A model generated the notes under the pieces. The model was given only the letters and a program-made list of their open reading frames with translations, had not been told where the DNA came from and did not search any database. Below are positions 15,790 through 49,780 of a stretch of 49,780 nucleotides of DNA, in pieces (the first letter of the stretch is position 1; the number at the start of each line of letters is the position of its first letter). The stretch is from a virus. Position numbers and translations under genes: made by a program. The stretch lies in IMG/VR virus record IMGVR_UViG_3300029310_000016; one strand, 5' to 3'.

Positions 15790-16320
15790 TTATAAAACGG
15801 TTGTATGCGCACTCACCGATTGCCTATATAACATATCATGCACACGTTTTGTTTCCGAATTTAATATTTTTTTTATTTTTTGTCTCGCTTGCGCAATGCG
15901 TGCCTTTGTTGTGCCTATAGGTTGCTTAAGTATTTCGCTTATCTCTTTATACCGATACCCTTTGAGTAACAGCGTCAGCTCTGCCCTCAGACGTTTTGGA
16001 AGACATGCAATCATACTCCCTGCATCATCAGTATATTCTGGCTGCACTCCAACATCTTTTCCACTCCTGCTGTATAATGTGCGGCATTTCGACTTAAGAA
16101 GATTGATATGCTGATTATTCATGATGCTATACACCCATGCTTTCAGTTTGCCCTGTTCCTGGTATCTGCTTTCGTTGCGTAAAGCTACTAATAATGTCTC
16201 CTGAGTAAGGTCTTCCGCTTCATCGGTGTTGCCTGTCAGCTTCAATGCATGCAGCCGTAATTCCGCACGCATTGAAGCTACCCTGTTTTGAAAATCGTCT
16301 ACATTGAGTTCCATGTCCAT
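15790..16320 (-). CDS. ECF-type RNA polymerase sigma-70 factor
   Basis: Region 2 EAEDLTQETLLVAL...LKAWVYSIMNN. Region 4 LPKRLRAELTLLLKGYRYKEISEILKQPIGTTKARIAQARQKI. Confidence 0.8.
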   Translation of the reverse strand: MDMELNVDDFQNRVASMRAELRLHALKLTGNTDEAEDLTQETLLVALRNESRYQEQGKLKAWVYSIMNNQHINLLKSKCRTLYSRSGKDVGVQPEYTDDAGSMIACLPKRLRAELTLLLKGYRYKEISEILKQPIGTTKARIAQARQKIKKILNSETKRVHDMLYRQSVSAHTTVL

Positions 16321-16338
16321 CTGAATTAAATAATAATG

Positions 16339-16346
16339 CAAATGTA
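16339..16346 (-). promoter_or_regulatory. Bacteroidota -7 box (TACATTTG = TAnnTTTG) upstream of the sigma gene
   Basis: Plus-strand caaatgta, 18 nt upstream of the ATG at 16320. Confidence 0.35.
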
Positions 16347-16418
16347 GACGTAATCATTATTCTATTCGTTATTTGTGTTTTATTTTTACTAATAGTGTTA
16401 TAAGGGAAACTAATAACA

Positions 16419-17324
16419 CTAACCTTCCGCTGCGGAAAGGATAGGCATTGAATAGTCTTTAATCAGTCGGAGAAAAGCTTCCGCACTCGGCTTTTTAGGA
16501 CAGTTCTTCAGGAAGTGCACATTGCTTGATAATGCAACCGAAAATCCTTCAATTGGCAGAGCAATTAGGTATGGCCGCGTTCTTACGTACAGTTCTGGCA
16601 AGAACGTAAGAAGATTCAGATTGTTGGCCATTGTCATGGCTGCTGCTGCGTCTGTGACTGTTGCCCTTATTCTTAGCTTGGAGAAGTCAATATCTACGTA
16701 CTTGCCGATACTGCTGAACACTCGTTGCCCTGCATCTGGAAGGATAATGTCATGAGTCAAGACATCATCCTTCGTGATGATTGATTTGCCTGCGAGCGGA
16801 TGCGAACGTCCCATCACAGCTCTCAGATGATAGCTGATGCAAGGTGTACTATCTATCGGCTCGTTATGATATGCAATGTTTGTCGTAAATGCCATGTCAA
16901 TCTCCTGATTTCTTAGCAACGTGTTCAGATTCTTTGCCTGTGCAAAGATGGCATTCATACGAACATTAGGATGATCTGTCATGAACTTGGCCGCTGCAAG
17001 TTCTATGTATGGTGCAATGAAAGAGCCTACACCTATATTCAGTTCTCCTGTAAGCATGTTATTCACATCGGCTACAGAGTTGTAGCAGTCCTCCATGCTG
17101 CGCACTGCGGCCTTTGCTCTAATGAGAAGGGCGCACCCTGTATCCGTAAGCGACAAACTATGAGAATGCCTCTTTATGAGCTGCGCTTTCAGTTCATCTT
17201 CTAAGGCTCTTATTTGATAACTTACCGCTCCTTGTGTTATACTGCAGCGTTGTGCTGCTCTGCTGAAGCTTCCTGTTTCGGCTACCTGAATGAAGATTTT
17301 AAGCTGTCTGTATTCCATGATCAT
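16419..17324 (-). CDS. LysR-family transcriptional regulator
   Basis: N-terminal HTH LKIFIQVAETGSFSRAAQRCSITQGAVSYQIRALEDEL plus a substrate-binding-domain-sized C-terminus. Confidence 0.85.
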   Translation of the reverse strand: MIMEYRQLKIFIQVAETGSFSRAAQRCSITQGAVSYQIRALEDELKAQLIKRHSHSLSLTDTGCALLIRAKAAVRSMEDCYNSVADVNNMLTGELNIGVGSFIAPYIELAAAKFMTDHPNVRMNAIFAQAKNLNTLLRNQEIDMAFTTNIAYHNEPIDSTPCISYHLRAVMGRSHPLAGKSIITKDDVLTHDIILPDAGQRVFSSIGKYVDIDFSKLRIRATVTDAAAAMTMANNLNLLTFLPELYVRTRPYLIALPIEGFSVALSSNVHFLKNCPKKPSAEAFLRLIKDYSMPILSAAEG

Positions 17325-38447: not shown

Positions 38448-40808
38448 TCACTTTTCTTTTAACGAATATGGTATTTCCTGTAGCGTTCTGTGCTTATTTG
38501 ATTTTTTTCTAAGCACCTCAGTTTTTAATTCATACACCTTACCATTATACTCAAAATTGTAAGACACCATGTGTTTTACTCCATCTGCAATCTTTTTCTT
38601 GTAGTTTTTTCGCTGCATATTGATATAACTATATTTTGCGTCTTTCAGGTCGTGCAAATTGTCTCTCAAATGTGCAATGGCAAGTAATTCGTCTTTTGTA
38701 TAAGCATGGAATATTAGGCAGTCTAAAGCATCTTTGGTAAGTGTTAACGATTTCGTATAAGCATTATTAAGCGTTATTACATTCTCGCTCCATTTGTCTC
38801 TCAATGATGATTTTGTCAATTCTTTGCCCATCTTACGGAATAAACTCTTGTCAGTCTCAGGTGTAACATGACAATCTTTATATTTCTCTTTCCATTCATG
38901 TAATGAGAGTGGCGTACCGTTCACGCCGCCTGACGTTTTCTTCTCTATTTTCTTCTTCCACCATTCCTTCTGCTCTGCAGTCATCATTGGTGTTGCAAGT
39001 CCGCTTCCAGCCTTCTTTACCACACCCTTCACAATAAGGGGATTAGGCCGTAAGTTGTCAACACGATAAGCACGCAGCGAAGCTTTCTTCAAATCAAAAC
39101 GCACTCTCCGTCCATCCATCATCCACTTGTTTATAGAGGCCGACTCTATTCCTGTTTGAGGATCGTAATAACGCCTTGTTCCGTCCGCAAACACCTCCAT
39201 GGTGATGATATGCCCTGAATACTTCTGGCCTCTATGCTTTTTCCACGTCCAGCTTATATGGTATCTACCTGGCTCAGCTGTCTTCTTCTCGAATTCAGTC
39301 AAGACTTCCTTCTCTGTTGTGAGAATCCATCGCCCCGACCGCCAGTCTATCGGCAGCTGAAAGCAGCGTATCGGCTTTGGCATATTCCCATCAACATCGA
39401 GCCATGCCGCACGTGTGTTGTATGCGAGCTGACCTCCCATGCTTCCATCCACATTGCCGAACGCTTCTACTGGAAGTCCTCGCCTTCTCAGCTCGTATGT
39501 CACCACGCAGCTCTGACAGTTGATTCTGTACTGCTCATCCTCGCCATAACATGGGTTTGGATGCTTCATGTCGGCCTGTTCGTGTGCCATCGGCTCGCCT
39601 ATCTCCACACCAACAGCTTTTGCAAGCTTAGACAGTTCATCATCCGATTTTCCTGTCTTCTTCTGCTCGCCTGTCCATCGCAGTCCTTTCTTTACATCTC
39701 CGTCCTTGTAGTTGTCCTTGATGAAATAAGGCATGCTCTTTGCTTTCTCGATCCTGTCCTCATTCTTCTTCATCCAGCCTGTAAAAGCATCTGGCATGTC
39801 CTTTACTTCGTCTTTGAAGTGGTAGTCACTAATATCTTCACCTCTGTCTTCCGCTTGCCACATTTCATCTATCTCGTCCCATGTCGCAACGATAGGCACA
39901 GCGATGCATCTGCAAAACGGATGCCACCCATCGAATTTGAAAGGCTTCGGGTAGTCACCCTGCAGCTCATCGCAGATGTCCCAAAACGGCACTCTCTGCC
40001 CTTTGTTGTTCACGATAGTGTGATTGTTGCTCAGCTCTATGCGTATGCCCTTAACCAGCGGTATGCCCTGCCATTGGTGGTAATCGGATGTGTGATAGGC
40101 TATATTCGTCTCTGTGGCCGTCATGCGGATGGCGTTCCTGTATGAACTTCGATACACGCCCTGCCCTGGATGGTATGCCGCTGCCCTCTTAGACAAGTGC
40201 AGCATCCCATGCTTGTCCCTAACCCTGCGGAACAGCTTTTTAGGCTCGTTAAGATACTTCCTCACGTCTCTTGACAGCTCTGCCGCACTCTTGCCTTCTC
40301 CAAGTCCTAAATCAAGCGCAAGCTCCAGCTCCTGCTTCGCCTGATCCTTGATTCGCCACACTCGCTGCGAGAGATTCATTCCGTCCGTCTTGCGCTTCTG
40401 GAACGCCTTCAATGCGGACAGATTAGGCTCTTTCCATTTCTCGATGATGCTCTTGCTTATGCCTGTGCTCTTCGTGAGCCCATCAATAAGCTTTGCGTTC
40501 TTCTCCGCAGCCAGCAGCCACTCACTCTTGTCACCTCGCTCCACAACGATCTGCATCTTCTGTCCCATCTGTGACAGCAGTTCGTCTATCCTCTTTTCCG
40601 CTTGCGGATGCTCTGAAAGCACAAAAGGCGAGGCAGGGTCGTTGAACCCTGTAGCCTCACCTATGCGCGCTGCTTCCTTCGCAAGCTCGTCATACACAGC
40701 ATCTATCGCCTTCTTTATCGCATTGAGGTTCTTAAGATGCCGCTTGTCGTATGCGCTCGCTATCTTGCGCACGACCTCTTCTGTAGTTACCTTCCCCTTC
40801 TTAGCCAT
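38448..40808 (-). CDS. MuF / SPP1 gp7-like head morphogenesis protein fused to a papain-like (Cys-His-Asp) domain and a further C-terminal domain
   Basis: MuF core ...NIAYHTSDYHQWQG...GWHPFCRCIAVPI. Then NCQSCVVTYELRRRG ... SGHIITMEV ... YYDPQTG, then about 230 more residues. Confidence 0.7.
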   Translation of the reverse strand: MAKKGKVTTEEVVRKIASAYDKRHLKNLNAIKKAIDAVYDELAKEAARIGEATGFNDPASPFVLSEHPQAEKRIDELLSQMGQKMQIVVERGDKSEWLLAAEKNAKLIDGLTKSTGISKSIIEKWKEPNLSALKAFQKRKTDGMNLSQRVWRIKDQAKQELELALDLGLGEGKSAAELSRDVRKYLNEPKKLFRRVRDKHGMLHLSKRAAAYHPGQGVYRSSYRNAIRMTATETNIAYHTSDYHQWQGIPLVKGIRIELSNNHTIVNNKGQRVPFWDICDELQGDYPKPFKFDGWHPFCRCIAVPIVATWDEIDEMWQAEDRGEDISDYHFKDEVKDMPDAFTGWMKKNEDRIEKAKSMPYFIKDNYKDGDVKKGLRWTGEQKKTGKSDDELSKLAKAVGVEIGEPMAHEQADMKHPNPCYGEDEQYRINCQSCVVTYELRRRGLPVEAFGNVDGSMGGQLAYNTRAAWLDVDGNMPKPIRCFQLPIDWRSGRWILTTEKEVLTEFEKKTAEPGRYHISWTWKKHRGQKYSGHIITMEVFADGTRRYYDPQTGIESASINKWMMDGRRVRFDLKKASLRAYRVDNLRPNPLIVKGVVKKAGSGLATPMMTAEQKEWWKKKIEKKTSGGVNGTPLSLHEWKEKYKDCHVTPETDKSLFRKMGKELTKSSLRDKWSENVITLNNAYTKSLTLTKDALDCLIFHAYTKDELLAIAHLRDNLHDLKDAKYSYINMQRKNYKKKIADGVKHMVSYNFEYNGKVYELKTEVLRKKSNKHRTLQEIPYSLKEK

Positions 40809-42187
40809 TATTCTGTAGGCTCGTTAAACAGGCTGCTTGTTGATGCCTCCTGCTCGTTTGCTATCTGCTCCAGCTCTGCCTCCACATCATCAACCATGCC
40901 AAGGCGTTTGACAGCTGTCCTCTGTGACATTATTTGCATGCCCCCTGTTGCATTAGAAAGCATCTGCACCCTTTCAGAAGTGTCATTGATTTGGAACGGT
41001 GTAATCTGCACGTTTACTTGCAACGCATCTATGGCTGCTGAAAGAGAAGGGTACATGTTCTTCATGTGCGCCTTTACCACGTTGACCTCACGACTGAAGA
41101 ATTCTTCCCAGATGCCGCTTTCATCTGTAGCCTTCTGCTGTGCGTCAAGGAACATCATCTTGCGGCTCTCGCCTGACATCGGAGCACTCTTCATGTTCTC
41201 GTAGCTGATATCTGGCAGCTGGAGCTGCATGAAGAAATTCTGCTTGATTGTGTCTACATGGAACTTCAAGCTGTCGATTGCCTGCGCCCATGTCTCATAT
41301 CCAACCTTTGCGTCCTTCGGGTAATGCAGAAAGGCCACGCCATCATTATCCTTGTTGACAGTGCTCCCTTGGGTAACGTTCTTCTCGTCCGAACACACCA
41401 CCCAATTAGGGCGAGCGTTCTTCCTGAGATAATTTCCATTGCGCGAGAGTGCCCATTCTGCTTCATACACATTGTCACTCTCATCCTCCCACACTGGTTC
41501 TGGTCTCATGGCATACACGCCACTTATTTTGCCGATGCTGATTGACTCCCTCAGTTCCTCTTGCCATCCTCCAATCTGCACCCATCTGACATGTTCTTCG
41601 GCCGCATAGGTCTCAAAGTAGTTGATTGTGTCGTTGCCTTCTGTGCGAGAGTATTTCACCGAAAGCGCAATCAGATCATTATACTCGTCAAAGAGCGGAT
41701 AAAGCTCAGAGCCGCCCATCGGACTGTACGACACGCAGCGCAGTTTCAGTTTGCTCGGTTCTTCTGCATACGTGACATCAGCCTCCTGAGCATACCATAT
41801 CGTAAGGATCTCGCACGAGGCGTACAGCTGCTTGCATCTGTCCCTGTTCACAGAATCAATCCTGTTGGCCTTGAATATGGCTTCCATTATGGATGCAGCC
41901 TTCTGTTGATTCTCATCGTCATGTGCATCATAGATACGCTGCACAGGCGTGCCGAACAATAGGCCTGACATTCGTTTTACGGCCAATTTCTGCCATCCTC
42001 TTGTGATGCGCGTGACCTTCTCCTTCTTCTTATCTGGATAAAGTGCCTTATCCATGACTGGATGCTTCTTCTGATTGTACTCTCTCTCAAGCTGCGTCCA
42101 TGGGCGCAGCTTAAATTGCTTCTTCATCAGGTCTGCGATAGTGTCTGCCGCAGCTCTGTCTCTCTTCATTATCTCCTTTATATCCAT
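40808..42187 (-). CDS. Portal protein (SPP1 gp6-like)
   Basis: 459 aa between terL and the MuF protein. Confidence 0.75.
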   Translation of the reverse strand: MDIKEIMKRDRAAADTIADLMKKQFKLRPWTQLEREYNQKKHPVMDKALYPDKKKEKVTRITRGWQKLAVKRMSGLLFGTPVQRIYDAHDDENQQKAASIMEAIFKANRIDSVNRDRCKQLYASCEILTIWYAQEADVTYAEEPSKLKLRCVSYSPMGGSELYPLFDEYNDLIALSVKYSRTEGNDTINYFETYAAEEHVRWVQIGGWQEELRESISIGKISGVYAMRPEPVWEDESDNVYEAEWALSRNGNYLRKNARPNWVVCSDEKNVTQGSTVNKDNDGVAFLHYPKDAKVGYETWAQAIDSLKFHVDTIKQNFFMQLQLPDISYENMKSAPMSGESRKMMFLDAQQKATDESGIWEEFFSREVNVVKAHMKNMYPSLSAAIDALQVNVQITPFQINDTSERVQMLSNATGGMQIMSQRTAVKRLGMVDDVEAELEQIANEQEASTSSLFNEPTE

Positions 42188-42284
42188 TCCTTCATTTTTT
42201 TATTCTGCGAACATCAACCATCCGTCAAATGTTCGTCTGATTACACTTCATGCCTCTGTGCGCTTGTTTGGCGGCAAATCAAGC

Positions 42285-43883
42285 CTACCACAGCACCTCG
42301 GCCATATCCTCATCACTCATCTGTGCGTTTCCGCGCTCATCCCATCCGACATTAGCCACTGCAGCTGGATGAAAAGTATTTGCAAGCGCATCGAATTTGT
42401 CCGTTGAACGGCCTATGCGCTCCTTGATATCCTCTTTCGGCTCGATGATAACCTTGCCATTGCTCAGAAAGCTCCAACGTATCTCTGTAGCCTCTTCCAA
42501 CAGCTCATCATCAGGTGGAAGACACGCCCCAGTCTTGTTGTCGGGATTCAGCCAATCACGCACAGCCCAGAAGAGGTATGCCCTCATGTTAGCAAACTCA
42601 AACTGCTGCGTGATATCCTTCAAGCCTTTCGCACTCTCGCTGTACTTGCAGCTTATGATTGCATCCTCAGACAGGACATTCCCTGTGTCTGTCTCGCACA
42701 CCTCCACCGCTCGTGAATAAACTCCTGCGCCCTCTCCGATTGTATCTATTGAGTAAGTGCATCCCGAACGCTTCCGCATGTGGTCTATTATAACTCCAAC
42801 CGTCCGCATGTGATCTGCCTTGCCTCCGCTGTCATGCTTCTCCAAGTCGAAGACATAGCTGCCGATTCTAAAGCACATGACCGTGCTGTCTCGTCCCATG
42901 CCTGCAACGTCCACGCCCATAACTCCATCATGCTGCGCTGGCGCATGCGTGAGCTTCCATCGCTCCTGTGCCAGCTCCACCCATCGCTGCGGAATCAGCG
43001 AGCTGTCATCAGCCTTCGGAAACTCGCCAAGCACTTTTTTTCTGAACAAATCTGATGGCCTATACCATTTGCCTTCCCATTCGAAGTCATTCTCACTCTC
43101 CTTAGCCTCTTCCTCTGTTATCTGTTCACACCAAGAGTTTACACGTTCCTCCACCCAGTCATAGTCAACCTGTCCAACATAAGTGATCTTCTTGTTTACG
43201 ACATTAGGAGCTGTAAGACTGTTTAGACAAAACTTCTCCCAGCGAGCTTGTTTCTGGCTGCGTGCTGCATATCCCTTAGTTGTGTTAGGGTTAAACACAA
43301 GAAGAATACGGCTATTACCTTGCAAATTACCCTCTATCGCCTCATATGTATCATCCTTGATGCCTGTTGCTTCCGTAATCACGAACATCGTGTTGGCCGC
43401 ATGAAATCCAGACCACGCTTCATGATTATTCTCGTCAGCTTTGAAGCCTACCAAGAACCACTCTTTGTTTTTTGGCATTCTTATACTGTCGCTATTGAGT
43501 CGGCCTGGCAAGGTAAAGCCTCTTGATTTAGCCTTTGTGTACAATCGGCTTATCTCTGCCATCATGATGTTCTCAACTTGCCTTCCCGTAGGAGCAGTTA
43601 ATGCCACCTTGGTGTTAGCCATCATTTCGCCTTTTTTATTCCAGCGCGGCGTGAGATACAGGAAGCACATAGCTATACACGCTGCCACGTAATCTTTTCC
43701 TCTTGCAGTGCCACTTCGCACGCTGACCATCTTATGCTTCTGCACAGCTGTTACTATAGCCTTCTGATCATCGTCAAGCGTCACTCCTAATACGTCTCTG
43801 ATAAAGGCGTTCCAATCCTTTCTCCAGAGACTAAATAATGCTGACGCTTTCCTTCGTATCTTATTATCTTCATCCTTCTTCAT
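42285..43883 (-). CDS. terL: Terminase large subunit
   Basis: RSGTARGKD (Walker A-like), MFVITEATG (Walker B-like), and a C-terminal nuclease-sized domain. Follows terS. Confidence 0.85.
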   Translation of the reverse strand: MKKDEDNKIRRKASALFSLWRKDWNAFIRDVLGVTLDDDQKAIVTAVQKHKMVSVRSGTARGKDYVAACIAMCFLYLTPRWNKKGEMMANTKVALTAPTGRQVENIMMAEISRLYTKAKSRGFTLPGRLNSDSIRMPKNKEWFLVGFKADENNHEAWSGFHAANTMFVITEATGIKDDTYEAIEGNLQGNSRILLVFNPNTTKGYAARSQKQARWEKFCLNSLTAPNVVNKKITYVGQVDYDWVEERVNSWCEQITEEEAKESENDFEWEGKWYRPSDLFRKKVLGEFPKADDSSLIPQRWVELAQERWKLTHAPAQHDGVMGVDVAGMGRDSTVMCFRIGSYVFDLEKHDSGGKADHMRTVGVIIDHMRKRSGCTYSIDTIGEGAGVYSRAVEVCETDTGNVLSEDAIISCKYSESAKGLKDITQQFEFANMRAYLFWAVRDWLNPDNKTGACLPPDDELLEEATEIRWSFLSNGKVIIEPKEDIKERIGRSTDKFDALANTFHPAAVANVGWDERGNAQMSDEDMAEVLW

Positions 43884-44439
43884 CCTCCACTATGCTTGTT
43901 TCCAACAGAGCGCGTTCAAAGTCAAGAGTTCCTGTCACCTCACGCTTTTCCGCTGCATACAACCCAAGAAGTTTTCTACGTTCTACGAGCAACTTGTTAA
44001 TCATCTCAATATAGCGCACATCGCCACAGCACCGCTCCTGTTTAAGAATCAACTCCATTCGCTCAACCGTCACATCGTTCTTCTTCGTAGAGTTAGGCGT
44101 ACCCTTCTGTTTCTGGCTTCTTGCGTCATAGTCTTCCTTACTCTTCTCCCAAGCCTCCCAACACTCCTTGATAAGTTCGTCTATGCGTGCCAGCTCTGTA
44201 GCCATATTCTTATCAAAGTCTTTCTGTCGTTGTTCGTGCCACTCCCCTGTCAAGCTGTTAATGTCTGCTTGCACTGTAGATAGAGAATAAGTTTCCAACC
44301 CAAGACCCTTCATTACCTCAAGCCTGATTTCTCTGCATGTATAGCCATGCTTATACAGCGGAGCTATGATATTCATGCGCAGCTCTTTAAGCCTTTTCCT
44401 GTTCGCTAATACAGCGTGTGAGTTCTGTTTATTCGCCAT
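43870..44439 (-). CDS. terS: Terminase small subunit
   Basis: 189 aa with an N-terminal HTH-like GYTCREIRLEVMKGLG, immediately upstream of terL. Confidence 0.6.
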   Translation of the reverse strand: MANKQNSHAVLANRKRLKELRMNIIAPLYKHGYTCREIRLEVMKGLGLETYSLSTVQADINSLTGEWHEQRQKDFDKNMATELARIDELIKECWEAWEKSKEDYDARSQKQKGTPNSTKKNDVTVERMELILKQERCCGDVRYIEMINKLLVERRKLLGLYAAEKREVTGTLDFERALLETSIVEDEEG

Positions 44440-45676
44440 TGTACCTGTAAATTATATTGCCTTCTTCATCTGTTCCGTCTGGTATCATCACACCCTCATA
44501 CATCTTATAAGGATTCTGACCGTTTTGCGGATTGTTCCACACCCATCTGAGATAGTCTGCCATGGTCATTCCGCGGAATCGCGCACGCTTCTCTTCACTA
44601 CAACAATTAAATCCACTTGCCTTCCCCCACTCATACTCATGCAGCTCAATAATATCCTTGCTAATATCGCTCCACATTACCTTTCCCTTGCCCTTGGCTA
44701 TCTGCAAGGCTTCACACCATTGGCCTCTGGAATAGTTCCAATCAGAAGGGAGACCGCAACACGATCCATTGTGACAATATTCCTTGAAGTGCGCATCGCT
44801 TACATAGAAGCGCATGCCTATCTCATTGCACACTTCATTCATGTTCTCCACGAAGGGACGCTTTATGTTGCGATTCAATCTCATATAGCCACAGCTCACA
44901 CTGTACTTCTTGTAAAATTTCATAATATCAAAGCCAGCCATCTTGTTAAGCTCTGGCAGAAAAGCACGTAGCGTAGGAGACCTTTGCTCGATACACAAGA
45001 ATTCTGTAGTCATAGCATCTGCACCCCTTTTGCCTGCCTCGCGTATAAGATCAAGATAGCTGGGTGTTGACACTCCGATGATGAATGGGCGCAGTCTTAA
45101 TGTTGCACCTCCTGCTCCTGCGTTAGCGATTCGTTCAATAGCTTCGAGTCTTTCCTGAGGACTTTCCACACCCTTTTCTATTATACGAGCTTTTTCTTCC
45201 TCCATAGTAATGATTGAGAACTTAAAGTTCCAGTTCTTCTGACCTCTCACCAAATCCATATAACGCTCGTCTTTTGTCCACCATGCGCCCTTCGTGGAGA
45301 AGCATAGTGGATAATCAATGTCTTTAAAGAACTTCAACAACTCCAGAGTCTTACCGTACTTACGTTCGTAGCCATCAAATCCATCGCTCATCCCACCCCA
45401 CTGCATAACCTTCCGTTGCTTGATGTACTGAGCAAATTGGCCTGCATGCTCGTCTGGTTCAATGAACATCTTCTTCACCTTCTCGATATTTACCGCACGA
45501 ACTTCCTTGTTCATATAATCGTTACGCTTTTTCTCCCCTCCTATGCCTCGTAGAAATTGAGCAAAGCAATACATACACCCGAAAGCGCAATTGCTATACG
45601 TGTCGAACGTCATTGGCATTGAGCAATCAGCTATCTCGGCTGTCCATCGTGGGGAATTGTAGTAGTTGGTCTCCAT
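44429..45676 (-). CDS. Radical SAM enzyme, SplB/COG1533-like
   Basis: SNCAFGCMYCF (CX3CX2C). The downstream pattern GGMSDGFDGYE...STKGAWW...RLEAIERIANAG resembles the spore-photoproduct-lyase-like family. The C-terminus is Cys-rich. An alternative start is at 45619. Confidence 0.75.
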   Translation of the reverse strand: METNYYNSPRWTAEIADCSMPMTFDTYSNCAFGCMYCFAQFLRGIGGEKKRNDYMNKEVRAVNIEKVKKMFIEPDEHAGQFAQYIKQRKVMQWGGMSDGFDGYERKYGKTLELLKFFKDIDYPLCFSTKGAWWTKDERYMDLVRGQKNWNFKFSIITMEEEKARIIEKGVESPQERLEAIERIANAGAGGATLRLRPFIIGVSTPSYLDLIREAGKRGADAMTTEFLCIEQRSPTLRAFLPELNKMAGFDIMKFYKKYSVSCGYMRLNRNIKRPFVENMNEVCNEIGMRFYVSDAHFKEYCHNGSCCGLPSDWNYSRGQWCEALQIAKGKGKVMWSDISKDIIELHEYEWGKASGFNCCSEEKRARFRGMTMADYLRWVWNNPQNGQNPYKMYEGVMIPDGTDEEGNIIYRYNGE

Positions 45677-46437
45677 AATACTTTCCTTGGTTTCTTGTCT
45701 ATTATAAATCTCACTTCTTCCATGTTGTTCTTCTGTGTAGTTACCATGCCAGGGTATTGCGACACAAGCATAGTGGCACACCTGTAATTCGCATCAGTCT
45801 TCCACCATTCCTCACACCCCCCCTTTGTTTTATGCCCTGCCTTAACAGATAGCATGTTAAACCGCAGGACATTGTAGCCTTTGTTCATGACACGAAGGCT
45901 GGCTTCATAGTCCTCTTTTACCAAATACCTCTTATCGAAACGCCAACCGAAGAACGATACGCCCATCATGCACCCTGTAATCATTGCCTTGTAGTGTATC
46001 GTGTGTGCCTTGAAGAAGTAATTATCCACAGCCGCACATCCCCATAGAAAGCATTCTCCATTCATGGCCGTTATAAAACACCTCTCCAATATATCCTGAA
46101 AGGCTTCCCTTGTCTTTAACGGAATATCACTCCTGCTATCTTCACTAAGTAAATTAACAGCGGTAACATCATCATCGAACATCACCATTCTCTTGATCTT
46201 ATTCCTTTGTCCCCAATCCAGCAAGTTATTACGGTTATCACCTACACAGCATCCCTTCTCGTATATAATGATTGCATCCTCTCCCCAATTCCGACTGTAT
46301 GCCTCAAAGTCCTCTTTCGTCTGAGTAGATATTACTATATCTTCCCTGCCATACCCCATACTCCTTAAGTATTCTACCGTCTTCTGCTTGTCTGGTCTCT
46401 TGTAGCTAGGTATTCCAAATATAATCCTCATCGCCAT
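45631..46437 (-). CDS. GT-A-fold glycosyltransferase-like protein
   Basis: IFGIPSYKRPD is the N-terminal beta-strand motif, and MFDDDV is a DxD motif. Confidence 0.55.
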   Translation of the reverse strand: MAMRIIFGIPSYKRPDKQKTVEYLRSMGYGREDIVISTQTKEDFEAYSRNWGEDAIIIYEKGCCVGDNRNNLLDWGQRNKIKRMVMFDDDVTAVNLLSEDSRSDIPLKTREAFQDILERCFITAMNGECFLWGCAAVDNYFFKAHTIHYKAMITGCMMGVSFFGWRFDKRYLVKEDYEASLRVMNKGYNVLRFNMLSVKAGHKTKGGCEEWWKTDANYRCATMLVSQYPGMVTTQKNNMEEVRFIIDKKPRKVLWRPTTTIPHDGQPR

Positions 46438-47069
46438 TCCTCCAATCTGTATGAATGTTTTAACTCCTTGCTTAATATCTGCTCTATCTCGTTTTCACGT
46501 CCTCTTGGATAGATGATTATAACTCTCTGCCTATCTGCGCATACAGGCGTGCTCTGGGTCTCGTTAGACATATCCATAAAGCTACTGATTCCGCCCCATG
46601 TCTGCACACCCCACTCTTCAAGGTCTGCGTTATCAAACGACTCCAGGGCATCCATATCCCACTCTCCTGCGCTCACATTGTCCTTGATAACAAACTGCGG
46701 AATTTCAGTATCGGTAAAGTCTGCGCGAATCACTTCCACCTCTGGTTGCAACCTCCACTGCTTCCACTGTTCCTCTATCGCCAATATCTCTCCGTCCGTC
46801 TTTTGTCTTCCCTGCGCTGCTCTGCTGATCTGTTCAATCAGTTCTTCATCCGACATCGCCAGAATAGCCGAAAGCGCACGAAAACGCATATTGCCTCCTA
46901 TTATAACATTGTCCGCATTTAGCACTATCTTACGTATGTCAAGCATTGTCGGGAATATCAAAATTGAACGTATCAGCTTTTGAAGATTATCATCCGTTAT
47001 AACACGTGGATTCTCGTCATTTTCCCGAAGCTGCGCTAGCAGCACCTTTTCTGATTCTCCTTGTCTCAT
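46428..47069 (-). CDS. ParB N-terminal-domain (ParB/Srx) protein, paralog 2
   Basis: DENPRVI...IRKIVLNADNVIIGGNMRFRAL and FVIKDNVSAGEWDMDAL. Confidence 0.7.
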   Translation of the reverse strand: MRQGESEKVLLAQLRENDENPRVITDDNLQKLIRSILIFPTMLDIRKIVLNADNVIIGGNMRFRALSAILAMSDEELIEQISRAAQGRQKTDGEILAIEEQWKQWRLQPEVEVIRADFTDTEIPQFVIKDNVSAGEWDMDALESFDNADLEEWGVQTWGGISSFMDMSNETQSTPVCADRQRVIIIYPRGRENEIEQILSKELKHSYRLEEWR

Positions 47070-47072
47070 CTC

Positions 47073-47819
47073 TTAACCCTCCCTCATGTATTTAATTTCA
47101 TCAAGCGTATAAGACACCTTATTCGTCCACATCTCTCTCCTGATGCCGAGCACCTTCAAAAGTTTGTCAATATCTTCTGTGTTATAGCTGATAGTAACGA
47201 AATCGTTAGGCCGTTCGTCTCGCCCTGCGATATCTGGCAATTCGTCTGGCTTCATGTCCACACCCTGCAGTTCTTCTGGCATGGCATCTGCGTAGTCCTC
47301 ATCATCTTGTTCCTCGTTCTGATTTGTGCTTGCCTGCGGTCTGTCATCCCATACGTCCATGCCCCAGTTCTGCAACTTGACGCTGTCCCAGTTATTCGCA
47401 AGGCTGTCATAATCCCATGCACCGTAGCTTACATTATCCTTTATGACGAATTGTTTCCTTTCATCCGATGTCAACTCATCAGCCATGATGACATGCGCTG
47501 TTGGACTCTCTATCCAATCTGCCCAAAACTCTAAAAGGTGCTTCCGCTCACCCTCTGTCTTTTCTGTATAATCGGAAATCTGACATAGTCTGTCTGCAAT
47601 GCGCTCTATGTCCATTTTCGCGATCTCCAGCAAGGCTCTCGCCCTCTGGTTGCCACCCAATGCCTTAAAGGTGTTATCAAGTACGATAGGGCGCACCGAT
47701 AGCATCTTTGGAAACACAAGCAAGCTATCCACCAGCTTACGAAACTTCTCTTGTCGTATCTCTCGAGGATTAGCTTCATTTATCCTTATCCTCGTCAAAT
47801 CAATTATTATTATCTGCAT
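47073..47819 (-). CDS. ParB N-terminal-domain (ParB/Srx) protein, paralog 1
   Basis: EANPREI...VRPIVLDNTFKALGGNQRARAL and FVIKDNVSYGAWDYDSL. Confidence 0.7.
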   Translation of the reverse strand: MQIIIIDLTRIRINEANPREIRQEKFRKLVDSLLVFPKMLSVRPIVLDNTFKALGGNQRARALLEIAKMDIERIADRLCQISDYTEKTEGERKHLLEFWADWIESPTAHVIMADELTSDERKQFVIKDNVSYGAWDYDSLANNWDSVKLQNWGMDVWDDRPQASTNQNEEQDDEDYADAMPEELQGVDMKPDELPDIAGRDERPNDFVTISYNTEDIDKLLKVLGIRREMWTNKVSYTLDEIKYMREG

Positions 47820-47848
47820 ATCTTTTAACTTAACGTCTTAGGTTTATA

Positions 47849-47856
47849 CAAATTTA
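47849..47856 (-). promoter_or_regulatory. TAnnTTTG -7 box (TAAATTTG) upstream of the ParB-GT-rSAM-terminase operon
   Basis: Plus-strand caaattta in the 88-nt gap upstream of 47819. Confidence 0.3.
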
Positions 47857-47907
47857 CGAATTTTGTTCGTTTATTCCGTGTTCGTACTGTCAATTAACTC
47901 GAAACAA

Positions 47908-48345
47908 TTATTTTGCCACATACTCATTAAACACATACGGTTCATGCTTTTCTGCTTGCAAGTCCATATCCGTATTGATCTTGCGCATGAGCAGCTTCAC
48001 CAGCTTGCGCCTTAGCGGATAATCTCTCACTTGAGCCGTGGCCTTGCTCTTGACTTCTTCCACTACCCATCGGTTCTGCAGTTTGTCATGGTAGAAAAAG
48101 TCGCAGTGATACAGGACGGCACGCTCATCCACCCTCTCTACAATTTTGACTTTCGTTTTGAGTTTCTTCTCAACCTTGACCGTCTGCTTGGGAATCAGTT
48201 CAAATTGCTTCTGCAGCTCCAGATTGTCAATGAGTCCTCGTCTCTGCATTTCTCGAAGCTGCAAGTAACGCATGAGTTCCGTCTTGCTGTCGAAGGTATG
48301 CCCATCTGCCATGACCTTGTGCGCAAAGTATTTCTGTTTTGCCAT
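47908..48345 (-). CDS. DUF1064-like protein (PD-(D/E)XK-type endonuclease-like)
   Basis: KYFAHKVMADGHTFDSKTELMRYLQLREMQRRGLIDNLELQKQFEL matches the DUF1064 pattern as recalled. The start is at MAKQKYF. Confidence 0.6.
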   Translation of the reverse strand: MAKQKYFAHKVMADGHTFDSKTELMRYLQLREMQRRGLIDNLELQKQFELIPKQTVKVEKKLKTKVKIVERVDERAVLYHCDFFYHDKLQNRWVVEEVKSKATAQVRDYPLRRKLVKLLMRKINTDMDLQAEKHEPYVFNEYVAK

Positions 48346-48432
48346 TTTTTTAAAATATTGCCTTTGTTGTTTTATACAATTTATGCCCTCCCTCATACCC
48401 ATTCCTTGTGCGGAATTCTCCTTATGCAGCCT

Positions 48433-48768
48433 TTACAGCTGCTCTTCGTCATTAATGATCCTGTTGACTGGTTTGAGTGTGATTACCGCTATTGCCTCGC
48501 CAGAGTTCGGGTTGTCGTAAAACGAGAAGCCAGCATGATCATTAAAATCATCCATACGAACAGTGATATCCCTGCCTGTGTAACTTTGGTTTATTTTCAT
48601 GAGGTAGTTCTTAAGCCAGCGGAGCATTGTCTGCAGAGTGATGCCTCCATCTTCGCCAAACTCTATAAGGGCGTTGTCGTATCGCTTCAAGAGCTCGGCA
48701 AGAGCTGCTGTCTTCTTGTTGTGCACCCTAACTTTCGGGCGTTCGATGTAATACTTTTTTGTAGTCAT
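48433..48768 (-). CDS. Hypothetical protein
   Basis: 111-aa ORF. Confidence 0.5.
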   Translation of the reverse strand: MTTKKYYIERPKVRVHNKKTAALAELLKRYDNALIEFGEDGGITLQTMLRWLKNYLMKINQSYTGRDITVRMDDFNDHAGFSFYDNPNSGEAIAVITLKPVNRIINDEEQL

Positions 48769-48798
48769 GTGGTTGTGTTTTTTTAATGTTACAATTAT

Positions 48799-49329
48799 TC
48801 ATTCCTTTACCATGAATGCAAACTCGAGTTCACGCATGTACTGTTCTTCAAGCTTAGGCCTCCGCTTCGTCTCAGCAGTAATGTAGCATTCGCTGCTTCC
48901 TTTTGCAATGACGTAACCGTACGAGCGCAATCTGTAACGTGCGGTTTTTTTTCTTGTTGCGTTATGATCCGCATACTTGTACTTAGTCAGCGGAGACAGT
49001 CCGTATGCCCTGCGCAGTTTGTCTCTTCTTACAAGGCTCTTTTTGATTTCTGACATCTTAGTGCATAAATACCTATGCCTCTGATGCAAGGCTTCTGATG
49101 CCCTCTTGGCGTTTTCTCGCAAATAAGATCTGCGGTATGCATCATCCTTTTTGAGGCCATACTTCCTTGCGATCCTCTGCATCTGGTACAAGCTGATTCC
49201 AAACATCAGGGTTATTTCCTTGTTGCTGCGGACAGGAAACGACATGATGAATTGATCCCGCGTCTCGTCCGTCCATGTGCGTTCTATTCCTTTTGTTGTC
49301 ATGTTCACGGTTGTTTTTTCATCATTCAA
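48799..49329 (-). CDS. Hypothetical basic protein (possible DNA-binding)
   Basis: 176 aa, Arg/Lys-rich, with an HTH-like ITLMFGISLYQMQRIARKYGL. Confidence 0.5.
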   Translation of the reverse strand: MNDEKTTVNMTTKGIERTWTDETRDQFIMSFPVRSNKEITLMFGISLYQMQRIARKYGLKKDDAYRRSYLRENAKRASEALHQRHRYLCTKMSEIKKSLVRRDKLRRAYGLSPLTKYKYADHNATRKKTARYRLRSYGYVIAKGSSECYITAETKRRPKLEEQYMRELEFAFMVKE

Positions 49330-49780
49330 TCTCTTGTAAGTCTTTCACGAGCTTTACATACAAAGCATAGCACCTTGCTTTCTTTTCGTTGTCTTTTCTT
49401 GCCTTTTCAATCAGTTCCTCGCCAGTGCCATGGAAACAACCGACCGTCCACATATTGTCGCTCCTTGTCCAAGTGAAATATCTTCCCGATGAAAAGTTGT
49501 TTTGGAAAACTATGTAATCAGATGTTTGTGAAATTTTTGCGTTGCCTCTAATATGCGCATACCCTTTCACTACTGCATTGCCATACACCTTTGCATCGTC
49601 AAGTATCTCTGCATAATCAAAAACACTTGTATCGCCATATATCCACGCATTGCTACCGACATTTGCATCGTCAAACACACTTGCATATTCAAAAACCCTT
49701 GCATCGCCATATATCCACGCGTTGCCATACACCTCTGCGTTGCCACACACCTCTGCATTGCCACACACCTTTGCATTGCC
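49322..49780 (-). CDS. Hexapeptide-repeat protein, C-terminal part (continues from 1..303 across the circular junction; about 220 aa in total)
   Basis: Repeats YGNAWI/YGDARV/FEYASV/FDDANV... followed by a globular C-terminus ...WTVGCFHGTGEELIEKARKD.... Open to the window edge, in frame. Confidence 0.7.
   Translation of the reverse strand, partial: GNAKVCGNAEVCGNAEVYGNAWIYGDARVFEYASVFDDANVGSNAWIYGDTSVFDYAEILDDAKVYGNAVVKGYAHIRGNAKISQTSDYIVFQNNFSSGRYFTWTRSDNMWTVGCFHGTGEELIEKARKDNEKKARCYALYVKLVKDLQEIE
49682..49780. repeat. Terminal overlap copy 2 (identical to 1..99)
   Basis: Direct comparison with positions 1..99. Confidence 0.95.

Follow-up and report, generated by a model that had tools for sequence, protein, structure and literature searches.

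The locus and its four proteins

The virus record IMGVR_UViG_3300029310_000016, analysed over its whole stretch of 49,780 nucleotides (hereafter the window), carries four tightly coupled genes that encode two ParB-like proteins (ParB-A and ParB-B), a glycosyltransferase (GT) and a radical S-adenosylmethionine (SAM) enzyme (rSAM), followed directly by a gene presumed to encode the small terminase subunit (terS). The junctions along this series measure +3, -10, -46 and -11 nt, the terS start overlapping the rSAM stop by 11 nt; these values, already given in a first-pass annotation made from the sequence alone, were all reproduced from the coordinates (Table 1), and each motif quoted in that annotation was located in the predicted proteins. 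The suggestion made there, a candidate DNA hypermodification system, gains support from the match of the GT to the TAGT family, the kinship of the rSAM with spore photoproduct lyase (SPL) and with gp53 of phage M6, the DNA-transferase cassettes of sister loci and the existence of protein fusions. We regard it as very likely that the ParB-rSAM-GT locus is a DNA hypermodification module, with terS presumed to stand outside the chemistry as an invariant downstream neighbour.

The GT matches Pfam PF20691 (TAGT) with an E-value of 3.8e-15 and 56.8 bits against a cutoff of 27.5, and also matches phrog_842. Described in the first-pass annotation as GT-A-like with IPSYKRPD and DDD, it does carry both motifs (aa 9-16 and aa 88-90, the latter at 46168-46176), with D88 and D89 invariant and D90 at least 90% conserved among homologs, and its AlphaFold2 (AF2) model (predicted local distance difference test, pLDDT, 87.5) returns GT-A folds in Foldseek. 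Pfam score, GT-A fold and DxD motif together place the protein in the TAGT family. The TET/JBP partner expected of a TAGT was not seen, with no TET_JBP in the window genome or in Pfam-annotated contexts; in all four GT-homolog contexts inspected (of 24 homologs), the gene adjoins an rSAM instead. Searches of GenBank phages with the rSAM and the GT by tblastn returned only three unannotated gut contigs and one cyanophage GT, that of S-CBWM1, which lies among sugar-activation genes with no annotated TET or ParB.

The rSAM is read from the ATG at 45676 rather than from an upstream GTG because the N-terminus beginning there (M..YY.SPRW..E..DC) is kept in homologs. Its CX3CX2C motif is CAFGCMYC (aa 30-37, 45566-45589), in which C30, C34 and C37 are conserved in 91-95% of 58 diverse homologs and Y36 occupies the tyrosine position of CxxxCxYC; this motif, a borderline Pfam score and the fold assign the protein to the radical SAM superfamily. 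Further cysteines are conserved across the family at C18 (78%), C228 (72%), C283 (64%) and C306-C307 (about 90%, codons at 44756-44761), so that the Cys-rich C-terminus remarked on earlier holds for C228, C283 and C306-C307, but not for C321 and C358-C359, for which family-wide conservation was not seen. The structural check proposed with the first-pass annotation gave a confident AF2 model (pLDDT 95.5, predicted template-modelling score 0.93) and, in Foldseek against the PDB, a top six consisting entirely of SPL (E 6e-9 to 5e-8, template-modelling score, TM, 0.5-0.6); the next rSAM family follows at E 2e-5, and many solved rSAM enzymes are matched. The label SplB/COG1533-like therefore survives as a predicted SPL-like fold with its cluster motif, but not as membership of the SPL family by sequence. 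NCBIfam offers only uncharacterised COG1533-type models (PA0069, Rv2578c and mobile-pair-B rSAM families), all of them scoring well short of the cutoff, and a queuosine/deazaguanine-type rSAM such as QueE was rejected for want of any such family match in Pfam or NCBIfam. When the rSAM family profile was aligned with phage M6 gp53 by hhalign, the two matched with a probability of 97.3% and an E-value of 1.7e-11 over 234 columns at 20% identity. Public labels for the window rSAM homologs and for M6 gp53 read 'DNA repair photolyase', which is misleading.

ParB-A and ParB-B are paralogs (35% identity, phmmer E ~1e-32), and profile matches bear out the earlier description of both as ParB/Srx N-terminal-domain proteins. 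ParB-A consists of a ParB/Srx N-terminal nucleotide-binding domain, an acidic linker with LPxELQGxD and a small C-terminal domain; ParB-B has the same N-terminal and C-terminal domains without the long acidic/LPxELQG linker. Motifs of the N-terminal domain include NPR (aa 17-19), GGNQR (aa 55-59, within GGNQRARAL, aa 55-63) and IKDN (aa 126-129) in ParB-A, and GGNMR (aa 58-62, within GGNMRFRAL, aa 58-66) in ParB-B. In these two proteins GGN[QM]R replaces the classical GERRxRA; G56 and R59, of the GxxR arginine motif, and N129 are invariant. The segment FVIKDNVS.G.WD.D.L, present in both proteins and shared with ParB-methyltransferase fusions (phrog_498), had been taken for a linker; it is instead the conserved second half of the ParB/Srx domain, and contains the invariant N129.

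Homology to the ParB/Srx nucleotide-binding domain is indicated at sequence level by several comparisons. ParB-A matches PHROG ParB families at E 1e-12 to 1e-17, and when 29 family members were combined into a profile, it picked up the N-terminal CTP-binding domains of Spo0J, Noc and ParB structures with E-values between 3.8e-11 and 3e-6, and sulfiredoxin more weakly; Pfam itself gives no PF02195 match for the two window ParBs, but does so for homologs. The matches to solved ParBs end at profile position ~82-87, before the helix-turn-helix (HTH) domain, and a Pfam scan of both window proteins found no HTH DNA-binding domain. A partition ParB of the ParABS type was rejected, there being no HTH, no ParA-like ATPase in the scanned window open reading frames (ORFs) and no plasmid context. 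A short-type second ParB recurs in a subset of loci, for example in Segatella copri prophages.

A conserved locus with a variable cassette

The arrangement seen in the window is widely shared. A total of 185 fetched loci were annotated by iterative profile searches seeded with the window proteins, and among those whose rSAM sequences are distinct and whose upstream DNA spans 3 kb or more, which come mostly from related gut phages, a ParB-family gene stands beside the rSAM on the same strand in 108 of 108, over rSAM identities from 97% down to 28%. The same arrangement recurs in more than 100 contigs, mostly just before terS, and is for that reason more than a chance assembly of genes. A window-type terS lies directly downstream in 52 of the 72 loci of the first set, and in L004-L007 terS homologs are found between the rSAM and a Pfam-confirmed Terminase_3 large subunit; the phages themselves differ in their packaging genes (Terminase_3 or Terminase_6N; SPP1_portal or Phage_portal). 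Mining of gene neighbourhoods, proposed as a check in the first-pass annotation, thus found a ParB-cassette-rSAM-terS architecture in which the ParB-rSAM pairing is constant and the slot between the two is variable.

That slot may hold a TAGT alone, as in the window, or a HAD/APH-like gene, a cytidylyltransferase and a TAGT, a set that looks like sugar activation followed by transfer. Other loci carry a P-loop kinase alone, the most frequent type in Segatella copri prophages; an amino-acid:DNA transferase with a kinase, with or without a GNAT acetyltransferase and with or without a class-II glutamine amidotransferase; or an amino-acid:DNA transferase with a kinase and a GT. Loci in which the ParB gene directly abuts the rSAM gene, with no recognised transferase between them, also occur. 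The amino-acid:DNA transferase of the sister loci belongs to Pfam ADDT (PF18724; 42.5 bits against a cutoff of 26.2), and the kinase matches phrog_800, the family of the 5-hydroxymethyl-deoxyuridine (5-hmdU) DNA kinase M6 gp54, at E 1e-12. GenBank mislabels M6 gp54 as 'terminase small subunit', a name that phrog_800 also carries (M6 loci L034:10189-11631 and L035:86-649).

Fusion proteins speak for a functional connection between the rSAM and these partners. Fusions of TAGT and rSAM are found in both orders (TAGT-rSAM and rSAM-TAGT) in at least 13 of the 150 best representatives, together with one P-loop kinase-rSAM-TAGT fusion and one fusion of an rSAM with an FkbM-type methyltransferase, which link the rSAM with GT, kinase and methyltransferase; all identified fusion partners besides ParB are enzyme types acting on or downstream of a hydroxyl handle. 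A phage SAM synthetase adjoins the ParB gene or the module in 32 loci (e.g. L018:6844-7872) and follows the rSAM immediately in L030 (9047-9841), which fits bulk, stoichiometric use of SAM as a co-substrate; no such gene is present in the window phage. A C5 cytosine methylase is present in 15 loci (~8%) and an ASCH-domain protein in 14 (e.g. L078:874-2382 and L156:3077-4183); both accompany one subtype, ParB-ADDT-rSAM, and relatives carrying the methylase may use 5-methylcytosine (5mC) rather than thymine as substrate.

Some loci hold additional genes. In L033 (5360-7004), a TAGT-type locus, an rSAM-SPASM protein and a PIG-L family deacetylase lie directly upstream of the GT, which points to additional processing of an N-acetyl sugar. 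In L004 (19742-20095), and likewise in L005-L007, a gene situated about 8 kb downstream of the module encodes a 117-aa protein with DUF559/Vsr-like and PvuRts1I-like N-terminal matches; the gene occurs in phages with the sugar cassette, and PvuRts1I represents an endonuclease family dependent on modified cytosine. Inteins interrupt the rSAM homologs P0125, P0133, P0136, P0145, P0172 and P0219, with LAGLIDADG or DUF559-type endonuclease domains, and NCBIfam includes an intein-containing model within the related Rv2578c rSAM family.

With more than 2,153 clusters at 90% identity and 1,242 at 50% identity (E <= 1e-3), the family of the rSAM is a large one, and it appears in about 345 IMG/VR contigs. 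Single-sequence IMG/VR scans with the distant rSAMs P0156 and P0224 returned nothing, and P0258 and P0185 stand on contigs too short to show their surroundings. The 22 matches in species-representative genomes are prophages or contigs of metagenome-assembled genomes (MAGs). Host taxa include Segatella copri (with a complete chromosome; the prophage L023 lies in strain HDE04, NZ_CP152346, at about 1.93-1.95 Mb), Prevotella, Phocaeicola, Bacteroidaceae, Paludibacteraceae and Tidjanibacter, as well as rumen or cecum Clostridia and Victivallales, and the metagenomic sources are human gut samples and rumen or cecum MAGs. The hosts are strictly anaerobic gut and rumen organisms, mainly Bacteroidales; a distant rSAM member occurs in a virus that encodes an MCM helicase and an MtrA-like gene and probably infects a methanogen. 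Iron- and 2-oxoglutarate-dependent (Fe/2OG) dioxygenases require O2.

Candidate chemistry and rival explanations

In the systems characterised so far, enzymes of the kinds seen in the cassette divide into two sets. The first, made up of TAGT-type GTs, the 5-hmdU DNA kinase and the amino-acid:DNA transferase, works either on a 5-hydroxymethyl pyrimidine in DNA or on what is later made from it; in the second, acetyltransferases modify a group once it is attached, and O-methyltransferases are found alongside 5mYOX clusters. The hydroxymethyl group itself is supplied by a thymidylate-synthase-like enzyme before replication or by a TET/JBP-type dioxygenase after it (PMC8989533, PMC8256090, PMC13229309).

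No such source could be detected in the window. The first 99 nt (1-99) are identical to the last 99 nt (49682-49780), and a 97%-identical contig (L001) aligns unbroken over the junction of end and start, from which the window is taken to be a closed circular, complete phage genome of ~49.68 kb. Essentially all its ORFs of 90 aa or more were scanned with Pfam, and no TET_JBP, 2OG oxygenase, thymidylate-synthase-like hydroxymethylase, C5 methylase, kinase or amino-acid transferase came to light, which extends to the complete genome the earlier remark that TET, kinase and methyltransferase genes are lacking from the gene set, and adds thymidylate-synthase-like genes to it. With 5-HMUDK, AADT (PF18724), a ThyA homolog and TET_JBP all not found in the window, the module does not fall into the known thymidine hypermodification pathway. 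Searches by phmmer with M6 gp58, the dUMP hydroxymethylase, found none in the six-frame window or in ~115 related loci at E <= 10, and TET_JBP appears in none of the precomputed Pfam contexts of related loci.

The nearest published parallel is provided by the ParB-dependent 5mYOX pathways. For activity on double-stranded DNA, thymine dioxygenases of the phage 5mYOX type can require a cognate ParB, which consists of a nucleotide-binding domain (NBD) and a C-terminal domain (CTD) and has no DNA-binding domain; around the dioxygenase genes GTs (31%), ParBs (27%) and terminases (19%) are over-represented, and a C5 methyltransferase (C5-MT) occurs in only 6% (PMC13229309). Compared by description, the ParB architecture and the GT and terminase neighbourhood of the window agree with this account, and the mutated residues N14, R16, S29 and R56 of ParB176 have, by residue numbers alone, the same spacing as N17, R19, S32 and R59 of ParB-A. 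Like these post-replicative modules (O'Toole et al. 2026, PMC13229309; Burke et al. 2021, PMC8256090), the window-type loci combine a ParB of apparent NBD+CTD build, in which no DNA-binding domain was detected, with partners that include GTs, kinases, amino-acid transferases and O-methyltransferases; terminase genes are frequent neighbours, a C5-MT is present in a small minority, and the GT belongs to the family named for its association with TET. Unlike them, they contain no detected Fe/2OG dioxygenase, have the rSAM in the invariant slot, belong to phages of strict anaerobes, in which a dioxygenase dependent on O2 would be unable to function, and are linked to SAM synthetase. The window module is thus not a member of a 5mYOX pathway but may work like one; the first-pass statement that it matches no known pathway is correct as to membership of a published pathway, but missed this close analog and the notion of an rSAM standing in for the dioxygenase without oxygen.

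Two characterised relatives of the rSAM act on DNA. Spore photoproduct lyase (SplB; PDB 4FHC and related) shares the fold and the CxxxCxYC motif and acts on DNA, its substrate being a thymine-derived lesion and its mechanism passing through a thymine methyl (allylic) radical; it differs from the window enzyme, which has ~75 extra residues, other conserved cysteines and a place in a modification operon, in serving repair in spore formers. The second, M6 gp53, is an N-alpha-glycinylthymine isomerase in phage DNA (Lee et al. 2021, PMC8989533), likewise an SPL-like rSAM in a phage hypermodification cluster, and acts on the C5 substituent of thymine in DNA; the sister loci of the window module, as M6 does, also carry ADDT, kinase and GNAT genes. 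M6 differs in making 5-hmdU pre-replicatively with the thymidylate synthase homolog gp58, and gp53 is paired with a pyridoxal-phosphate-dependent decarboxylase rather than a ParB and is dispensable in related phages, whereas the window-type rSAM is invariant and ParB-paired.

Since the rSAM is the sole invariant enzyme, is always paired with a ParB, has thymine-directed relatives and is accompanied by no other detected source of an acceptor, we propose that ParB and rSAM together replace ParB and 5mYOX without O2. We consider the chances evenly balanced that the locus is a late-expressed, post-replicative base-hypermodification module in which ParB and rSAM make the acceptor that the TAGT then glycosylates, and we lean slightly towards the rSAM making the acceptor group rather than tailoring a product. 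Held more tentatively is the specific proposal that the ParB-partnered rSAM is an oxygen-independent 5-methylpyrimidine hydroxylase acting in duplex DNA, an anaerobic counterpart of TET/JBP, with thymine as substrate and also 5mC where a C5 methylase is present.

By analogy with the systems above, the DNA substrate, the thymine base, the hydroxylation, the order of steps and the role of the ParBs may be pictured as follows. The ParB proteins, which have no recognisable HTH, would load or activate the rSAM on double-stranded phage DNA, as ParB has been shown to do for the ParB-dependent thymine dioxygenases. There the rSAM would cleave SAM reductively, and the resulting 5'-deoxyadenosyl radical would attack a flipped-out thymine and remove a hydrogen from its C5-methyl group. 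The allylic radical would then be oxidised, possibly via the extra conserved cysteines or a second cluster, and water would trap the oxidised intermediate to give 5-hydroxymethyluracil (5hmU) in DNA; the TAGT would add a sugar to the 5hmU hydroxyl, yielding a base-J-like glycosylated thymine before packaging, and the modified DNA would be expected to resist host restriction and other DNA-targeting defences. The position of the module at the head of the packaging operon fits such late modification, before encapsidation. The predicted logic of thymine to 5hmU to glycosyl-5hmU is that of base J in kinetoplastids (JBP1/2 hydroxylase and JGT glucosyltransferase), a eukaryotic, O2-dependent system without ParB, whose hydroxylase and GT are unrelated to those of the window; that the window follows precisely this chemistry is conceivable, though somewhat short of an even chance.

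A number of points weigh against this reading, which as a whole draws on homology and gene context. We are aware of no radical SAM enzyme able to hydroxylate the methyl group of a nucleobase, and the proposed hydroxylation needs an electron acceptor for the second oxidation. The Pfam Radical_SAM match (PF04055) is borderline, at 29.5 bits for a cutoff of 29.5, and a 56-sequence rSAM profile run against all PDB sequences at E <= 10 found nothing meaningful, and no SPL. The 108 loci with ParB pairing are, given the relatedness of their phages, not 108 independent events; the kinase link is weak by direct sequence comparison (M6 gp54 at E 0.003, HMUD2 at E 0.004); and cassettes with only a kinase or only a GNAT are hard to explain. 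The TET/JBP negative depends on Pfam sensitivity in a window with many small or unannotated ORFs, and in the 129 neighbouring gene clusters it refers to the 25 Pfam families listed of 64, among which TET_JBP does not appear; thousands of divergent 5mYOX sequences carry no Pfam annotation (PMC13229309). Finally, M6 gp53, the one phage relative that has been characterised, is an isomerase with a tailoring role and no initiator, and the 5-hmdU of its phage comes from a thymidylate synthase homolog.

This last point leads to the rival that survives best, although we think it unlikely: the rSAM would be a downstream tailoring enzyme in the manner of gp53, rearranging, cross-linking or oxidising whatever group the GT or another transferase had added, and the acceptor would have a different origin, for instance action of the GT on a canonical base or an unrecognised hydroxylase. 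The unannotated ORFs of the window leave room for the latter, and phage SP10 also has an rSAM beside a kinase/transferase gene. A tailoring role is difficult to reconcile with the constancy of the rSAM across transferases for sugar, phosphate, amino acid, acetyl and methyl groups, for which one shared tailoring reaction is hard to picture, or with the ParB-rSAM pairs that abut without a recognised transferase; moreover, it leaves the origin of the acceptor unexplained in a complete genome without a detected ThyA-like or TET-like gene.

A pre-replicative route, in which the rSAM and nucleoside-triphosphate-binding ParBs convert a free nucleotide such as dUMP, dTMP or dCMP to a hydroxylated or hydroxymethylated product and the product is incorporated and then glycosylated on DNA, appears improbable. 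Most classical phage hypermodifications do begin at the mononucleotide level (PMC13326640), ParB/Srx domains bind nucleotides, and a dUTPase gene lies near the module in L004-L007. The complete window genome, however, has no detected DNA polymerase, deoxynucleoside monophosphate kinase or dTTP-exclusion genes, the rSAM fold is closest to a duplex-DNA enzyme, and the module sits in the late packaging operon rather than with replication genes; the ParB precedent, too, is post-replicative and specific for double-stranded DNA (PMC13229309).

No more credible, and ranked just below, is a target other than DNA bases, such as a virion or terminase protein that would be glycosylated or matured by radical chemistry, or production of a modified sugar or small molecule, with the ParBs serving packaging or partition. 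Both enzyme classes, GT-A and rSAM, are versatile, among PDB structures the GT model comes closest to protein or glycan glycosyltransferases, and a place next to the terminase could mean a packaging role. Against this, the GT is specifically a TAGT, sister cassettes contain an amino-acid:DNA transferase and DNA-kinase-like genes, the nearest rSAM relatives by fold and by profile are two DNA-acting enzymes, and some loci have C5 DNA methylase and ASCH genes linked to the module. Virion protein glycosylation, the alternative named in the first-pass annotation, is contradicted by the placement of the GT in TAGT, by the DNA-transferase genes of sister cassettes and by the fusion proteins. SPL-like repair of thymine lesions in phage DNA before packaging, with the GT as unrelated cargo, would suit the public 'photolyase' labels and SPL as best fold match, but is very improbable and was rejected, as the rSAM is no SPL by sequence, spore photoproduct is a UV lesion of dehydrated spore DNA and irrelevant in the gut, and neither the fusions to GT, kinase and methyltransferase nor the strict ParB pairing would be accounted for.

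Genome context and biological meaning

The module and its neighbours are listed in Table 1. The 88-nt gap between the DUF1064 gene and ParB-A holds a TAAATTTG box, which had been read as the promoter of the operon; the box is indeed present upstream of ParB-A, but the window contains 32 copies of TAnnTTTG where shuffles lead one to expect 26 +/- 5, and since the motif is not enriched, the box alone carries little weight. Scans of the window for sigma-70 promoters and terminators did not rise above the shuffled background. The presumed large terminase subunit (TerL), encoded by the gene that follows terS in this operon, which gave no match in the Pfam scan, is so named from its placement and its PHROG family.

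Table 1. Position of the module and adjoining features in the window.
Feature	Coordinates	Strand	Remarks
DUF1064 / Holliday-junction-resolvase-like	47908-48402	-	164 aa
TAAATTTG box, possible Bacteroidetes-type -7 promoter element	47849-47856	-	sequence only
ParB-A	47073-47819	-	248 aa
ParB-B	46428-47069	-	213 aa
GT-A glycosyltransferase, TAGT family	45631-46437	-	268 aa
SPL-like radical SAM (rSAM)	44429-45676	-	415 aa from ATG
Presumed small terminase subunit (terS)	43870-44439	-	189 aa
Presumed large terminase subunit (TerL)	42285-43883	-	532 aa; between terS and portal; phrog_5902
SPP1-type portal	40808-42187	-	459 aa

Elsewhere the window encodes an integrase, RecT, YqaJ, a helicase and an Amidase_3 lysin, and the best explanation is a temperate phage of strictly anaerobic gut Bacteroidales. 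A megablast search of positions 40000-49780 against 50,697 GenBank phages gave no match. Several further genes deserve mention in their own right. A 786-aa protein encoded directly after the portal (38448-40808, minus strand) contains a Gln_amidase domain (Papain fold toxin 1, glutamine deamidase) at aa 429-553 (E 4e-13) and may represent an effector that the virion delivers, joined to a head-morphogenesis protein; in L005/L007 the corresponding gene matches this domain faintly. Between the tail genes and the lysis/integrase region, positions 15790-17324 (minus strand) encode a LysR-family regulator (301 aa) and a sigma-70 factor of the extracytoplasmic-function (ECF) type (183 aa), uncommon regulatory cargo in a phage. 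An ORF of hexapeptide/beta-solenoid-like repeats (YGNA.V.G.A...; 49322-49768, minus strand) reaches the assembly junction, and its true length depends on closure of the circle.

Earlier work has described phage hypermodification clusters that contain ParBs, GTs, kinases and amino-acid transferases, and even an rSAM resembling SPL. In the literature we found no description of a ParB-rSAM module, often with a TAGT and without a dioxygenase or hydroxymethylase, in phages of anaerobes, a mention in the 2013 paper that defined TAGT being possible. Searches on radical SAM with phage, ParB, glycosyltransferase or hypermodification brought up only the M6/ViI papers as relevant, and the 5mYOX and phage-GT papers make no mention of radical SAM or anaerobes.

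The known routes, dioxygenase and thymidylate-synthase-like, leave post-replicative hypermodification in phages of strict anaerobes, which dominate the gut virome, unexplained. If the ParB-rSAM pair initiates the modification, it would represent a new activity, in which a radical SAM enzyme oxidises the methyl group of a base in DNA, and an O2-independent route to 5hmU or 5-hydroxymethylcytosine (5hmC); the use of ParB-like proteins as activators of DNA-modifying enzymes would then extend beyond dioxygenases, and oxygen-free DNA hydroxymethylation or labelling could become available as enzyme tools. In practical terms, such modification would bear on bias in gut virome sequencing, on the outcome of restriction and CRISPR defences, and on phage therapy and engineering in Bacteroidales. 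Given the size of the family, many phages of Prevotella, Segatella and Bacteroides may have non-canonical DNA, and, if the proposal is correct, widespread gut and rumen phages would carry glycosylated, phosphorylated or amino-acid-modified thymines made without O2.

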